Positions 7,601-39,158 of a stretch of DNA of 64,000 bases are shown piece after piece; within the stretch, counting starts at the first letter, position 1; each line of letters starts with the position of its first letter. The notes under the pieces are model-generated. The model worked only from the letters and a program-made list of their open reading frames with translations, had not been told where the DNA came from and did not search any database. Origin of the DNA: Eledone cirrhosa (Eukaryota); assembly GCA_964016885.1 (NCBI GenBank), contig OZ024743.1:266104001-266168000 (forward strand), given 5' to 3'. Position numbers and translations under genes: made by a program.

Positions 7601-8519
7601 CGATAGTCGTGCCCATCGAATATCTTTCGTTTCTGTGTTTCCTAAGAAATGCACATTAGTTCTGACAATAACAGATTTGTGTTTCGCATTGGAAAAATGA
7701 TCCAGTTCTATTCTCACAACTTGTCAGTTGCAATCCGACCCCAAATCACATAATCTAATTTATCTACAAACGCCCATCTCTTTCTATTTGCCTACCTTTA
7801 ATTATTGAATAAATGTCATTGATTCCACATTAATTGCTCTCTTGACAGCAACTCTCCACCTGTTTTTGACGATATCCCTTCACAAATGTTCTTTAAATAA
7901 TGTACTAAACCGGTCACTGAAGAATAGCAACGCATTAAACTTCCAGTACCGCCGTCACAGTTTACGTGTTCTATCAATGTCAACCATGCAGAGCACGAAT
8001 TTGTGGACAACTTACGCTACCCATATCGGCTAAATTATTCAAAAACCTATCTAAATACGATGTAGATGACTCTATGCGAATAGTCTAGGTCCACAATGGC
8101 GCATTTGGGAAATCTATTTCCTAGCCTTCCGACATTTGGTGCTGTCTGATGAGCTACACTTAGGCAGTTCCACCAGGCGTTTGAAATACCGTTCCACTAA
8201 GGCACGCGGATAACAGTAAAAGGTGAAACTTTCCTAGAAAGTCTACCAGACACCAAATAAAATCCGGCCGTTCACCCACATTTGGAGCGTAGTCGGTCAA
8301 TAGTCTTAAAGCACTACTTCGCTATTACTCACATTCAGGACCATCAAATTACCGGTCGCATCTAGGAATAACTTCCACACATCGAAGTCCAGGCCTTTGC
8401 TAAATAAAATAGTTATTTTAATGTTTACACTAGGTTATATTTAAAATTACATATATGTGTACACAAACATACACACATACATACATAATACATGCATACA
8501 CACATACATACATACATAT

Positions 8520-9130
8520 ATGGTGGCTGCCAACTCGTTTTCGAGTACGGCCCCTACTTTTTATCCATGTAGGAGAACCACTACCAATGTGCTGAACGAG
8601 TGTGACTTTTTAGTCCAGCCAGCGACTTGAAAACTCTGGTACAAACACTACACTTGTGACAATTATTGACACATAGTGCTGGGCCCATGGTACCATGTGA
8701 CGACAAGTGCAGAGAGATCTCCAGATATGAAGCAATGCCTATGCCGCGAAGCTTTTATAGTGAGCAAAGGCACTACACAAAGCCAGTCCCACTCTCTTAA
8801 CCAAGATGATATTTACCAAAAAGAAGAACAAGTCAACATCATTGGATACCATCAGGGTTGCATGTGTTATATCAGAGTTTTCCTTCTCCTAGAATTCTCC
8901 CTTGACAAAGGCTAAGGGGTCATCTCTCCCGGTGATTTTGGATGGCCATTGACTCTTAAGAGCTCCTTTGCTCTTTGACAGGTTTTGTTTTTAGTCCTGC
9001 AGGATGTGCAAAGTCACCCTCATCACCAAGAAACCTTGGTGGGGTTGCCAGTTTAGTCGTCAACGACCCGACCATGAGACATGTTGTAATGGGATACATG
9101 TTACCAATAGCACCAACTGGTGACCTGACA
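8520..9130 (+). mobile_element. Non-coding interspersed repeat in (TACA)n, resembling an RTE-type LINE 5' UTR
   Basis: near-identical inverted copy at 12215-12633; relatives at 28805-28860, 29010-29125, 29295-29630; starts ggctgcc..ctcg....cgagta and contains ccttctcctag. The RTE resemblance is from memory, not a search. Confidence 0.55.
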
Positions 9131-9155
9131 TGAATACATACATACATACATACAT

Positions 9156-10206
9156 CTTGAGAAGCTAGGCTTCACAGGAATAGAACGAACACATCTAGTT
9201 AGGAAATTACAAGTTTAATCAATTATTGGAACAGTAAAATTATGTAAAACATTCCAAAAATTTTGCATCTAATAACTGCATATACACATGTACAGATACA
9301 AAGCATATACACATACACACATACAACTCAAAACATCCACATCCACACATACAATAACATCCATATCTACACATGCATGCATACATACATATCTACCTAG
9401 TTGATGCTGTGTAAATTCCAATGAGAGAGTATTGTGTCTATGTTAGAACCGACTCTCTCTCTATTGGTAAAACTTTGTGAAATTATAAAACCAGAAGAAC
9501 ATACATACATAAATACATACGCTGACAATAAAGACATTAAAAGTTACAGCAATGTGGAAGAGATATACATACATTATATGAAAATGTACTGGTGGAATGT
9601 TCTAATTAAAACACTAATAAAATGCACACCAGATTTAATGATATGGGACAGGGAAAAGAAGGTATGTACAGTAGAGGAAGTTAGCTGCCCATAAGATGCC
9701 AATATAATATTAAAGATCGTCGAAAAAGAGAATATCTATGCAGTACTAATGAGAAATCTCCAGATACTACACTCTGAATATACCTTCAGATTTTTTACCT
9801 GTGATTATTGGGGCACAGGGATATGTTAGTAACTGTCTCATTACAAATCTTGCGAAGCTAGGTTTCACAGAAATAGAATGAACACGACTAGTTAGGAAAT
9901 TACAAGTACAATCCATTAATGGAACAGTAAATATATGTAAAAACCTTCCACAATTCTGCATCTAATAACTGCATATTCACATGTATAGATACAATGCATA
10001 TGTACATGCACACACATAACTTAAAACATCCACATCCACATATACATTAACATCCATAACTGCACACATGTGCATACATGCAGGAATGCATACATATCTA
10101 CCTAGTTGATGTTGTTTAAATTCCAATGAGAAAGACTTGTAACTATGTTAGAAACCGACTCTCTCTCTCTATTGGTAAACATTTATAAAATTATAAAACC
10201 AGAACA
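9156..10206 (+). mobile_element. Two tandem 5'-truncated R4/Dong-like non-LTR retrotransposon 3' ends (restriction-like endonuclease)
   Basis: PDLMIWDREKKVCTVEEVSCP (PD..E motif), then PVIIGAQGYV...LAKLGF...VRKLQ; duplicated 3' UTR ending ttataaaaccagaa in (CATA)n at about 9499 and 10206. Confidence 0.75.
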
Positions 10207-10694
10207 TACATATGTACATATACACATTCATACATTCACATTTACACTCCCACATATATAGACCCGCACAGAGCTACATACTGATGCACATTAGTACAAT
10301 GTTGCATTTGTATATAATGAGGGAAAATAAAACCCGTCAATCAACTAACATTATGTTTGGAATTCAGCATGATTTGAGGTCCATCACCTCTTACTTATTT
10401 CTAACTATCGAAGTGAAATTACTGAACCCTGGATAACATGTGTATGCAACATAATTTTAACATTAAACTATATGTATATTACCATGTTTTTAACCCAGAG
10501 TGCAATAAAGGTTTCTCTGTTAATGTGCAGAGATATGTCTGCCAACATTTCAATATGTCGTTTTATGTTTAGCGTAACCGTAACTTGAGCCAACCCAAAG
10601 TTCGCAGATCACTATTAAAAGGGATGAATTGTAATATAGAAAATTAGATTAAAATCCTAATTATATTTTATTATTATATATATATATATATATA

Positions 10695-11555
10695 TTTCGT
10701 TTCTGAATTTGTTTAGCAAGATACTTTATCTGAAAACGTGTGTTGAAGCCGATATTGTTATACTTTGGCAGTGTCATGTTGCCAATAAGAAACACACGCA
10801 ACAGTTGCTTTCACTTCAATTTATTATAAATTAAATTTATAAATTTAGGAATTTATAAATTTCCAGTTGGTTGGTTGGTTTCACAACCAGACGAATGTTC
10901 ATATATTGTCAAAGTTCTTTCGTCAAACATTCTGTGACCTCATCAGTGACTGAAGATTCTTTTCTTTGTTTTTGTCCCTCTCCTTTGTTCTGTCCTTCAC
11001 CATCTTGTTTTTGTGTGTGTGTTGTGTGCTTAGTTTGCACATGTGTTACGTCCGGGTGTCTGTGTGTGTGTTTATATTTGTTTATTTATTTTTTTATTTA
11101 CATGTTACTGGGTGGTTGTTTGTTCTATGTGTGTGTGCGTTTTCATTTTGTCCAATTAAGGACAAAATGAAAACACAGACACACATAGATCAAACAACCA
11201 ACTAGTAACATATAAATAAACAAATAAATAAACAAATATAAACACACACACAGACACCCGGACGTAACACATGTGCAAACTAAGCACACAACACACACAC
11301 ACAAAAACAAGATGGCGAAGGACAGAACAAAGGAGAGGGACAAAAACAAAGAAAATAATCCCCAGTCACTGAAGAGTTCACAGAATGTGTGACGAAAGAA
11401 CTTTGGCAATATATGAACAATCGTCTAGTTGTGGAACCAACCAACTAACCGGAAATTTATAAATTCCTAAATTTTAAAATTTAATTTATAATAAATTGAA
11501 GTGAAAGCAACTGGTGCGTGTGTTTCTTATTGGCAACATGACCCTCCCAAAGTAT

Positions 11556-11563
<8 letters not shown>
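10695..11563. mobile_element. Fold-back element, family A copy 1 (about 400 bp arms), Penelope pLTR-like, in (TA)n
   Basis: arms 10752-11153 and 11160-11563 are reverse complements around aattaa; 57 bp unpaired tail on the left; second copy at 24402-24995. Confidence 0.9.
10908..10950 (-). ncRNA. Minimal type I hammerhead motif (mirror copy on + at 11365-11407)
   Basis: gtca CTGATGA ggtcacagaatgtttgac GAAA gaac TT tgac. Confidence 0.65.
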
Positions 11564-11630
<67 letters not shown>

Positions 11631-11648
11631 TGTGTGTGTGTGTGTGTG

Positions 11649-11709
11649 TATTATAAGAACAGATTGAAGTTTAAGCAAAGAATCGCTGCTTTCACCCTTA
11701 ACGGGATCT

Positions 11710-11712
<3 letters not shown>
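11649..11712 (+). repeat. About 65 bp microsatellite-embedded repeat
   Basis: cagattgaagtttaagcaaagaatcgctgctttcacccttaacgggatcttaa; inverted copy at 47479-47542. Confidence 0.8.
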
Positions 11713-11789
<77 letters not shown>

Positions 11790-12214
11790 ATAAAAGTATT
11801 CGCTTTTGCAGGGTATTTCACGATCTTGTAAAATGGCTGCGCATAACAAATGGGAAGAAAAAGCTATAAGATAGTTTTATTCAACGTGGTCGATGGAGTT
11901 ATGTAATACATGTATCTTCATGTAAGAAGATGTGTCACTGAGAATAGAATAGAAGTTCAAGGACTATTTCACGGAGTAATATAATATAAACATAATAACA
12001 GGAAAAACTATGCAACGTTTATAGTTGATATGTAATCTACTAGCTCACATTGCGTTGTTGAATTGCTCATCATTGGAGAGATTCCAAAGTTTTCGTAGGC
12101 GAATATATAACTGCTTTGAAACACGTGTTAGAGGTTCTATTGTCTAATAAATGTTTCTTCGAACTTCCATAAACGTTCCCTAGGTTTTCCTGATTTACTG
12201 ATTATATATGTATG

Positions 12215-12632
12215 TATCACCGGGAGAGATGACCCCTTAGTCTTTGTCAAGGCAGAATTCTAGGAGAACGAAAACTCTGATATAACACCTGCAACTCTGA
12301 TGGTATCCAATGATGTTGACTTGTTCTTCTTTTTGGTAAATATCATCTTGATTAAGAGAGTGGGACTGGCTTTGTGCAGTGCCTTTGCTCACTATAAAAG
12401 CTTCACGGCGCAGGCATTGCTTTGTATCTAGAGATCTCTCTGCACTTGTCGTCACATGGTACCATGGGCCCAGCACTATGTGTCAATAATTGTTACAAGT
12501 GTAGTGTTTGTACCAGAGATTTCAAGTTGCTGGCTGGACTAAAAAGCCACACTCGTTCAGCGCTTCGGTAGGTGTACTCCTACATGGATATAAAGTAGTG
12601 GCCGTACTCGAAAACGAGTTGGCAGCCACCCC

Positions 12633-12633
<1 letters not shown>
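12215..12633 (-). mobile_element. Second copy of the 8520-9130 repeat
   Basis: reverse complement match; gives the same spurious MLGPWYHVTTSAERS ORF. Confidence 0.8.
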
Positions 12634-12690
<57 letters not shown>

Positions 12691-21070: not shown

Positions 21071-21167
<97 letters not shown>

Positions 21168-21393
21168 GAAAATTAGAGTTAATAACTCTTATTGAAACCC
21201 TGTAATCATTAAGCTCCAAGTATAAAATACTGAGCATTATAATAATAATATATATGTAGTAAGAAACACAGTAAACCGTGTGTCTAATATTACAAGGGTT
21301 GAAAGACCACATTTGTTTGAAATATTTAACCATGAAGCAGACAGAATGATAAAATAAAATTATATTATACAAGCCGCCTCAATAACAATTATA

Positions 21394-21473
21394 TCTCTCG
21401 GACAGATTAGGGATAATCTGTTTCGCCCTGAGTGTGTTTGCAACAGATAATCATGGGCATCATCAGCGAGAGA
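21394..21473 (-). ncRNA. Canonical type I hammerhead ribozyme
   Basis: tctctcg CTGATGA tgccc...gggc GAAA cagatta tccc taatctg TC cgagaga: 7 bp stem I, 7 bp stem III, GUC cleavage triplet. Confidence 0.9.
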
Positions 21474-21893
21474 ATCTGATTAAATGCGACAAACACTATG
21501 TACCAACGTTCACACAGAAGATGAATTTATCACCTCGTGCGCCGCAAGTCAAAACTGGTATGAGTGTATTGGTTAGAAATAACAGTCCAACACACGCAAC
21601 TTAATAAGCTCACCTCATGAGGGAGCCGAAATATAAATGAATATATATATTATTATAATGCTCAGTATTTTATACTTGGAGCTTAATGATTACAGGGTTT
21701 CAATAAGAGTTATTAACTCTAATTTTCATTTATATTTCGGCTCCCCCATGAGGTGAGCTTATTAAGTTGCGTGTGTTGGACTGTTGTTTCTAACTAATAC
21801 ACTCATACCAGTTTTGACTTGCGGCGCACGAGGTGATAAATTCATCTTTCTGTGTGAACGTTGGTACATAGTGTTTGTCGCATTTAATCAGAT

Positions 21894-21973
21894 TCTCTCG
21901 CTGATGATGCCCATGATTATCTGTTGCAAACACACTCAGGGCGAAACAGTTTATCCCTAATCTGTCCGAGAGA
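21894..21973 (+). ncRNA. Canonical type I hammerhead ribozyme, sense to the host intron
   Basis: tctctcg CTGATGA tgccc...gggc GAAA cagttta tccc taatctg TC cgagaga; predicted cleavage after 21966. Confidence 0.9.
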
Positions 21974-22119
21974 TATAATTGTTATTGAGGCGGTTTGTAT
22001 AATATAATTTTATTTTATCATTCTGTCTGCTTCATGGTTAAATATTTCAAACAAATTTGGTCTTTCAACCCTTGTAATATTAGACACACGGTTTACTGTG
22101 TTTCTTACTACATATATAT

Positions 22120-22156
<37 letters not shown>

Positions 22157-22792
22157 TCGCCCTCTCTGTGGACGTGCATAAAAGTGCTTGAACATACGTT
22201 CGTGTTATCTTTTATAAGATACCGTATTGTGTATTGGTTATCAGTTCATATAATGTAACCCGAATAACTACATTCATTTTTGTGTTTGCGTGTATATGTC
22301 TTCACATAGCATCAGCTTATATTGGTCAGTAGTTGATTATGCTACTTAAACAATAATGTATTTCATATATTTTAACTCAGTTCTATTTTCCCCTGGGAAA
22401 CGATGATATGTGTTATTGACTATACCAATTCAAAAATAATAACTACTCAATATAATTCTATCAAGAAAACAGGACATATCAATCATTTTCCATTTAGTAT
22501 TATCGTGTAGTTTCAGTTATTTTGCATTTCCTGAGTTCAATTACTGCCGACGACTCATTTGTCAAATATTGATCTAGGAAAGTGCATGATGTCGTCAACT
22601 TTCCCAAAACACCCGCCTCAAATAAAATCATTTCGTGATTATGTCTCTCTTCGGGCTGAAAGGGCTTTATACTACCCTATACAATTGGTCCCGTTTGGTG
22701 TCAATATAATTCTTTGGAAAAGATAAAGAGCGGAAATTAATGGGAGTAGAAGAAGATAAAGGAGGAAGAGAAGGGGAAATATATAAGAAAAA

Positions 22793-37336: not shown

Positions 37337-37393
<57 letters not shown>

Positions 37394-37400
<7 letters not shown>

Positions 37401-39021
37401 AATGAATAATAACAGGTAGACATCATAAAAAGGTAATATATTCCGTGTGCTTACAAATGTTTCCACGGTGGTACTACAGCCTAGTTATGCTATGTGCAAA
37501 TTTACAAGTATTTGCAGAACTCAAATATCCAATGCTGTGACCACTGTATCCTCAGAGCAGAATGGTAAAATGTACAATGTAAATACCCTTAAGTGGGGTT
37601 GTTGGGGAAGATAGAGTAGAAAAGGAAGAGAGAAAAGTAGGGGAGAGGGAGAGAGAGAGAGAAAGATATGCAGGGGTTGGAGAAGTAGGAGAGAGTGGTT
37701 TGTAGATATCTTAATCAAAATGTTATGGTAGGGGTTTTATTATACTGGTTCCTTTTGGAGAGATGCGTTGATAGTTAAGATCGGAATTATTTATTGCCCC
37801 AGAGGTCAGGTTCATAGATGTGGAGAGGGAGGTAGGCCAAAGGCGAGAGAGAGAGAGTGTAATGGATGTAGAGAGAGAGGTAGAGAGGGGACAGACGAAA
37901 TTTCTGTGGTGAGTGAACTTTGGGTTTGTAGTAGTAATCTGTGAATTGTACTGAGTTACCATTTATAGTGATAAGCAGTGTATTGTCTTGTAGTGTGGGG
38001 GAAGAGAAGGTGGTTAGCTAGAAAGTGATGTTATAGTTACGGGTTCGAATGTTAAGTTATTTTATAGTGAGAGAATTTAACTTTTAGTTTGTGGTTGCAG
38101 TATAATGATCGTTCAATTCTATCGTTAAGTAGTTTGTTTTTGGATTTTAATATGTAAAAGAGTTCAAGGTTACATAACCTGCAGTACTTCAATCCACTCC
38201 GATATGCACTTGCGCTGGAAAGTATATCCCATTTTAAGGTGAACTGTTGGTTGTGTTCACGGAGTTGCCAGGTCTTGTTGGCAAGCGTGGTCACAAAAGG
38301 TGATTAGGATGTTTGATTGAGAATCGATGACGGTATCAGCGAGATTTAAACGAGGGGGTGGTAGATCCGATATAATACCATTTCTGGTCGTTCGATTCAA
38401 CCGTGCATTGGTAAACAATGTTGGACTTTAGGCATTCATTCTCCAATGGACATCTTTCAGGTAGATGGCAGTTACAAGACTACTACTACAAACCCAAAGT
38501 TCACTCACTACATAAACTTCGTCTGTCCCCTCTCTACCTCTCTCCCTACATCCATTACACTCTCTCTGGCCTTTGGCGTACCTCCCTCTCCACATCTATG
38601 AACCTGCCCTCTGGGGCAATAAATAATTCCGACCTTAACTATCAACGCATCTCTCCAAAAGTAACCAGTATAATAAAACCCCTACCATAACATTTTGATT
38701 AAGATATCTACAAACCACTCTCTCCTACTTCTCCAACCCCTGCATATCTTTCTCTCTCTCTCCTTCTCCCCTACTTTTTTCTCTCTTCCTTTTCTACTCT
38801 ATCTTCCCCAACAACCCCACTTAAGGGTATTTACATTGTATATTTTACCATTCTGCTCTGAGGATACAGTGGTCACAGCATTGGATATTTGAGTTCTGCA
38901 AATACTTGCAAAATTTGCACATAGCATAACTAGGCTGTAGTACCACCGTGGAAACATTTGTAAGCACACGGAATAAATTACCTTTTTATGATGTCTACCT
39001 GTTATTATTCATTCTTTATAT
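37394..39021 (-). mobile_element. Penelope-like 3' fragment (GIY-YIG) between about 545 bp inverted pLTRs
   Basis: arms 37394-37940 / 38477-39021; centre on minus CHLPERCPLENECLKSNIVYQC..YYIGST..LKWDIL..YCRLCNLE..LLNDR..CNH. Confidence 0.9.
38854..38966 (+). ncRNA. Type I hammerhead with 86 nt stem II (mirror on - at 37448-37559)
   Basis: tgct CTGAGGA tacagtggt...accaccgtg GAAA catttg TA agca. Confidence 0.72.
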
Positions 39022-39158
39022 ACACTCCGGAATACAGAAGGATCAGGAACTAAGTTTCTTCAACAATTCTTCCATAACTCGTAGAGTAACCTCTCACCGT
39101 ACGTCAACCATATCCAGTGTAGTAATTAACCATTACTACATCTTGGGTAATCCTATAC

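Follow-up and report, generated by a model that had tools for sequence, protein, structure and literature searches.

The window, a 64-kb stretch of DNA, holds two 471-nt non-coding units lying head to head, with (TA)n on either side. Read in hammerhead sense, each unit, which we call V, is made up of segment A (V1-88) and segment B (V89-471). The features at the locus are as follows.

21097..21159, no strand: (TA)n microsatellite, left half of the target site
21160..21247, minus strand: 88-nt tail, segment A (V1-88), the left arm's end at the second fixed 3' end (family-wide, 100 of 218 outward ends in 133 insertions)
21248..21641, minus strand: left arm, V78-471, 5'-truncated
21394..21473, minus strand: intact type I hammerhead motif, predicted cleavage after 21401
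21642..21647, no strand: head-to-head junction of two 5'-truncated arms, TA-rich microhomology
21648..22119, plus strand: right arm, one whole unit (V1-471), tail-less, at the first fixed 3' end (family-wide, 102 of 218 outward ends)
21894..21973, plus strand: type I hammerhead motif in which one stem III pair is broken (at 21950); cleavage predicted after 21966
22120..22153, no strand: TAT repeat and then (TA)n, right half of the target site

The right copy (21648-22119, plus strand) reads V1-471, and the left copy runs on the minus strand from 21641 down to 21160 as V78-471 and then V1-88. An earlier note on this DNA had described the two copies as reading A-B and B-A, with both junctions present, and this arrangement was confirmed (98.5% identity between right and left copies). 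It had also reported a terminal redundancy of 10 nt; the repeat, at 21160 and 21631, is exact and has a period of 471, but it is 11 nt long. The longest ATG ORF in the tandem unit is 64 amino acids, in agreement with the note's view that there is no credible ORF, and the GC content of the unit is 35%. The locus is best explained as a single head-to-head insertion of a 471-nt hammerhead-motif repeat into a (TA)n run. Target-site duplications are unreadable for insertions of this family (family V), the sites being (TA)n. Because each strand carries one sense hammerhead, no monomer circle would come from the locus itself: two consecutive same-strand hammerhead units are absent from 21160-22119 taken alone, the locus would be an end product rather than a source, and its transcript is predicted to be a long hairpin. 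Two more long inverted repeat pairs lie in the window (37392-39022 and 8469-12684, 96% and 91%), and their repeats recur in other loci.

Both copies carry a 7-bp stem I, CUGAUGA, one extra U, a 4-bp stem II, GAAA, stem III and GUC. The left hammerhead folds at −23.9 kcal/mol (z = −2.6) and the right one at −19.6 kcal/mol (z = −1.0). The claim of a full hammerhead in each copy thus stands as regards the motif, the 7-bp stem I and the GUC site; it fails for stem III of the right copy, where an A-to-T change at 21950 disrupts one pair. Rfam gave zero matches at the gathering score in the 64-kb window and no hammerhead family at E ≤ 5 over 21100-22200, and the hammerhead call is therefore based on motif and fold. 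The miRNA matches that Rfam returned reflect the inverted repeat, lie far below the gathering score and were discarded. Across family V, the type I core (CUGANGA ... GAAA ... UH) is present with stems I, II and III, and 93.8% of stem cells are paired in 38 distinct sequences. The family V hammerhead has one extra nucleotide after A9, and hammerheads tolerate one extra nucleotide at this point.

The genome holding the locus measures 3.0 Gb. A search with the whole unit yielded 1819 first-look candidates, of which 40 were scored, a 25-mer from the 3' end had 321 exact matches (control, 0), and a 15-mer from the core had 634 (control, 19). From the first 100 places of the core 15-mer matches, 70 loci were fetched, of which 7 belong to another family, W, and we therefore take several hundred hammerhead-bearing units of family V as a lower bound. 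Copies are about 70% to 99% identical to V and form several subfamilies, with unit lengths of 457-472 nt; most are dispersed monomers and head-to-head pairs. The unit and the B-A junction are also present in contigs (kind unrecorded) from three runs of one sample. Many copies have gaps of 80-1140 nt at the B-A junction (L010, L024, L025, L076, L080, L100 and others), which are probably (TA)n growth or secondary insertions at this TA-rich junction.

Next, we looked at how the copies end. Collapsing the sampled loci gave 133 insertions, in samples that favour long or hammerhead-containing copies, with 218 outward-facing ends: 102 at V471, 100 at V88 and 16 elsewhere. The family has two fixed 3' ends, V471 and V88, 88 nt apart, and the 5' ends of the arms are scattered. 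Two outward ends were present in 85 insertions and were native on both sides in 72, and 71 of these 72 combined one V471 end with one V88 end, a pattern that we call the one-tail rule. In 62 further insertions (excluding duplicates of the first set, three segmental copies of L299 and 7 W loci), the rule held for 22 of 23 double-ended ones, giving 93 of 95 double-ended insertions with one end of each kind when the sets were combined. (TA)3 or more lies within 20 nt of 188 of the 202 native 3' ends. Both arm types share AT-rich positions at which their 5' stops cluster (V1, 345-350, 414-425 and about 70-97). Arm lengths within one insertion are unrelated. We rejected fold-back copying of one arm from the other, the tail-less arm being longer in 38 of 71 pairs and shorter in 31.

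Family V therefore has the marks of Penelope-like insertion: fixed 3' ends, an optional tail at a single end, 5' truncation and an inverted 5' copy. In the available text of two papers (PMC8557442, PMC3846280), Penelope-like elements are described as 5'-truncated, with partial tandems, an inverted 5' copy and a tail confined to one end, and, as judged from the sequences of its copies, the insertion pattern of family V is Penelope-like in all these respects. The two fixed 3' ends and the one-tail rule lead us to read the B-A copy as the tail-bearing arm and the A-B copy as the tail-less arm; the 11-nt redundancy is the 5'-truncation point of the left arm, in an AT-rich stretch. The earlier note had proposed instead that reverse transcription began at varied points of TA microhomology, which is contradicted by the family-wide recurrence of the V471 and V88 ends and by the one-tail rule. 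The survey of genomic copies that it called for did reveal tandem arrays, but the points of permutation are not free, since there are two fixed 3' ends.

Arms extended beyond V1 in 56 of 192 cases and always into V471 of another unit. Two or three complete same-strand hammerheads were found in 13 of the 133 insertions, and arrays reach 3.8, 5.4 and 7.2 units. Adjoining units abut directly: between hammerheads there is neither an LTR nor a PBS/PPT-type internal or coding region. Family V is thus, as expected of a non-LTR retrozyme, a short non-coding repeat arranged head to tail, in which consecutive units can each have a hammerhead. The longest arrays appear, from their repeat structure, to show post-insertion growth at the DNA level. 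The array of 7.2 units (L251, C2:364754928-364758215) contains six identical 457-nt units, which reflect either recent expansion or an assembly artefact, and L252 has a repeat pattern of two units. On sequence grounds L251 is the best candidate source locus for the predicted circles.

We also considered whether the unit might be the pLTR of a coding Penelope-like element represented solely by 5'-truncated copies, a reading that draws on the Penelope-like architecture of the ends, on the more than 10,000 GIY-YIG candidates in the genome and on the partial sampling of the family. Arms longer than one unit always enter another unit, however, and 48 one-directional insertions have no sequence in common next to their 5' ends; their upstream flanks show 9 pairwise matches near the junction at differing truncation points. 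A piece of Penelope-like ORF lay upstream in sense within 1.2 kb in 0 of 133 insertions; the 5 of 133 with such a piece within 1.2 kb all had it beyond the 3' side. V had no blastn match in 30 + 20 GIY-YIG loci, and the RT + GIY-YIG endonuclease ORF of an autonomous Penelope-like element was not found with family V in the 133 insertions. As what lies upstream of the unit is always more unit and never an ORF, V is a complete non-autonomous element and not the pLTR of a coding element; we regard the pLTR reading as very improbable. The earlier note had named a mere pLTR as the outcome that would undo its proposal, and the tandem copies and the lack of an attached ORF in the sample speak for the proposal: its non-coding, tandem-forming, hammerhead-bearing element of the retrozyme kind is what we find.

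We then asked whether the hammerhead is constrained. The test used 52 of the 53 insertions picked solely by V249-263, and the 29 constrained columns lie in the 3' half. Variants at a frequency of at least 15% occurred in 1 of these 29 unselected hammerhead columns versus 129 of 364 columns elsewhere (Fisher test, P value = 9 × 10−5), and a rank test of column variability was borderline (P value = 0.052), both statistics coming from alignment columns that share ancestry and are not independent. Columns V391-450 are about as conserved as those of the hammerhead. The sole hammerhead variant at or above 15% changes U-A to U-G and keeps the pair. Stem changes are one-sided (U-A to U-G in 14 of 38, C-G to U-G in 5 of 38), and two-sided covariation in the stems did not exceed the shuffle control in the 38 distinct sequences. 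Loop III (V306-309) is free to vary, with the forward form in 98 and the reverse complement in 58 of 165 segments; in one tandem copy (L127), both states occur within one array. These results are good but not conclusive evidence that the hammerhead is under selection. They bear on a further alternative, in which V is a satellite or foldback DNA element spread at the DNA level and the hammerhead is a chance or dead motif. The inverted arms, the enlargement of some arrays by DNA recombination and the absence of an Rfam match would fit such an element, but retrotransposition is signalled by 3' ends that are fixed while the 5' ends vary and by the one-tail rule; in addition, arm lengths are unrelated and the hammerhead motif is constrained, and we give this alternative hardly any credence, slightly less than the pLTR reading.

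Among the coding Penelope-like loci compared (50 GIY-YIG loci and family P1), no autonomous partner of V was identified. P1 is a young coding Penelope-like family with an 887-aa frame containing RVT_1 and GIY-YIG between pLTRs (L358-L398; L390:2748-5408), and its 150 scored matches show 97-100% protein identity. It has a (TA)n target and a tail of about 40 nt, in which its start codon likely lies. Of its 6 double-ended copies in view, 5 obey the one-tail rule, and the sole hammerhead-like stretch of P1 has a deviant core, UUGAUGG. The resemblance of P1 to V around the first 3' end was not above shuffles (7 and 22 of 100), with few families sampled, and the ATG in the tail of this V subfamily is absent in others; end similarity does not single out P1 as the partner. 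Family W (loci L262, L279, L289, L290, L294, L303, L320 and L328-L357) is a second non-coding head-to-tail unit, about 841 nt long, with 2687 first-look candidates and ends of the form TTATTAT(TA)n. Its hammerhead-like motif is of the dimer type, with a stem II of about 80 nt, a minimal stem III and a palindromic loop. Unlike V, the 30 best copies of W have no inverted arms and a tail in one only. W was rejected as a coding parent of V, being a non-coding tandem unit that is not homologous above shuffles (score 112 vs 109 ± 8); the ORF seen in L320 carries a 3' end of its own. Elsewhere in the window, an inverted pair of minimal hammerheads with palindromic loop III (62453 and 62704) represents another Penelope-like end family, also seen in L106, L117 and L005, and a weak hammerhead-like motif at 11364-11407 is similar to one in L103. 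Several coding Penelope-like families occur in loci L101-L120; these have a CX4CxxC linker, look Neptune-like by eye and contain frames up to 1096 aa.

What template would give rise to these insertions? If the template were a cleaved linear monomer, no arm could extend past V319; yet 141 of 192 arms cross this predicted cleavage site, so the RNA copied was either a circle or a multimer left uncleaved. The 5' ends of the 192 arms did not accumulate significantly at the site (6 at V318-323, equalled by 7% of all 6-nt windows). Read-through fell to 18 of 56 in the second lap from 141 of 192 in the first (7 of 27 versus 81 of 113 in the least biased subset), a drop that finite linear templates explain as well as strand displacement does. 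Units or arms within one insertion have a median divergence of 2.7% versus 6-8%, the loop III state is the same in all 27 arm pairs and in 19 of 20 tandem pairs, and private variants are shared within an insertion at 1.55 (units) and 0.66 (arms) per kb versus 0.03, 20-50 times the sharing of close unrelated copies. This similarity fits a single template, and also later gene conversion. A stop after one lap was rejected as proof of a circle, since both arm types stop at common AT-rich positions, and partial tandems and tails do not prove one either, because coding Penelope-like elements make them too. When six natural monomers were folded as circles, z ranged from −1.4 to −4.7 (25 shuffles each), and stems I and II were mostly unformed in 3 of the 6 predicted circles.

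These data leave two forms of the same non-autonomous Penelope-like element to be weighed. In one, a linear multimer transcript that is partly uncleaved serves as the template, the sole role of the hammerhead is to trim the 5' end from read-through RNA, and circles are absent or a by-product. The main substrate of an anole element is uncleaved RNA (PMC11167929), and the extra stops in the second lap, the sequestration of the hammerhead predicted in 3 of 6 monomers and the regrowth of arrays at the DNA level (the six identical units of L251, the two-unit pattern of L252) agree with a linear multimer. The head-to-tail insertions of non-autonomous Chlamys elements, in a group where canonical hammerheads are described in only two subclades (PMC8557442), also weigh against the circle. 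Against the linear multimer, every unit of a linear template would be cut by a fast monomeric hammerhead, which is nevertheless conserved across subfamilies, and 5' ends do not pile up at the cleavage site. We judge the linear multimer, with circles absent or incidental, a real but lesser possibility. Since linear templates would not survive a fast monomeric hammerhead, a cycle that includes cleavage and then ligation accounts more easily for the conservation of the motif, and the sequences incline us somewhat toward an RNA circle as the template.

In the cycle that we propose, rare copies with at least two same-strand hammerheads would be transcribed and would self-cleave into 471-nt monomers, which a host ligase may close into circles. 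A Penelope-like RT/GIY-YIG protein would cut both strands of a (TA)n site, priming at V471 on one target strand and at V88 on the other. Both cDNAs would stop early or exceed one lap and would be joined head to head at AT-rich microhomology; multi-lap products could renew source copies, and some arrays may enlarge later via unequal crossing over. It is very probable that family V is a non-LTR retrozyme, and the odds tilt modestly in favour of the whole mechanism with a circle as template and a borrowed Penelope-like reverse transcriptase. For the full reading, in which a Penelope-like RT copies a ribozyme-made 471-nt circle, primes on both strands of one (TA)n cut at two fixed sites 88 nt apart in a single template and continues beyond one lap, we estimate a probability of roughly 0.45.

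We compared family V with known systems as described in the available text of the papers cited. Animal non-LTR retrozymes are known from mussel, coral and axolotl, with circular RNAs in mussel, and Penelope-like elements were put forward as strong candidates for mobilising them (Cervera and de la Pena 2020, PMC7229834). Family V resembles them in its short non-coding tandem unit with a GC content under 45%, canonical type I hammerhead, predicted self-paired circle and co-occurrence with Penelope-like elements. It differs in unit length (457-472 nt versus about 170-400 nt), in occurring mostly as dispersed monomers and head-to-head pairs, in having a long stem III of 8 pairs and an additional U or A following CUGAUGA, and in its explicit Penelope insertion signature, its circle being predicted only. 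Li, Clavereau and Pollet (2026, 10.64898/2026.07.22.740005) described retrozymes as non-autonomous Penelope-like sequences and saw cleavage in 1 of 9 dimers assayed. Our conclusion on origin and mobilisation is like theirs, V falls within their 51-972 bp, and the family has the two consecutive units with complete hammerheads that they use as a criterion. Their case is built on vertebrate co-occurrence and pLTR homology with a model of local tandem amplification, whereas ours rests on the insertion architecture of dispersed copies, with no homologous pLTR found.

The Penelope-like tail corresponds to the sequence separating two internal RT start sites, and the target site is cut on both strands, each of which is then extended; the anole PAc element uses uncleaved RNA, and its hammerhead is dispensable in vitro (PMC11167929). 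Family V shares with EN+ Penelope-like elements (PMC8557442, PMC3846280, PMC11167929) 5' truncation, partial tandems, the inverted 5' copy, the single-end tail, two RT start sites, AT-rich or (TA)n targets and a hammerhead upstream of the ends, but it has no ORF, its tail is 88 nt long (shorter in one subfamily) versus 30-40 nt, and its hammerhead is of the monomeric type where theirs are minimal. Non-autonomous Chlamys elements such as MRC1 insert head-to-tail, and canonical hammerheads are described in only two Chlamys subclades (PMC8557442). These elements are likewise non-autonomous Penelope-like units with multicopy head-to-tail insertions, but the MRC1 type is known from green algae, resembles its autonomous partner at the 3' end and has no canonical hammerhead reported in the text available.

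Family V thus probably adds a new member to the animal non-LTR retrozymes, which are known from mussel and have been linked to Penelope-like elements. The earlier note had proposed an undescribed cephalopod retrozyme; the family is apparently new, but the class has been described already, a mollusc (mussel) included (PMC7229834). The literature searched held no report of a cephalopod retrozyme, although paper supplements, Repbase or Dfam may list the family, and the main text of a 2026 octopus repeat annotation (PMC13282606) contains neither "ribozyme" nor "retrozyme". In the available accounts, the step from retrozyme circle to genome is still a hypothesis, to which PMC7229834 contributed the candidate and the 2026 preprint co-occurrence and pLTR homology. 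The insertion record described here links the class to Penelope machinery more directly than those papers do: nearly every double-ended copy of family V bears the Penelope insertion signature and the hammerhead is constrained, whereas the one Penelope-like enzyme that has been purified could do without its hammerhead. One genome offers young copies, a pair of mapped RT start sites and coding families that are also young, which makes the question of circle or linear multimer testable in vitro. If a Penelope-like RT does copy a ribozyme-made circle, family V would be direct evidence for the final, so far hypothetical, step by which animal retrozymes complete their cycle, and would also offer a ready substrate for reconstituting that step.
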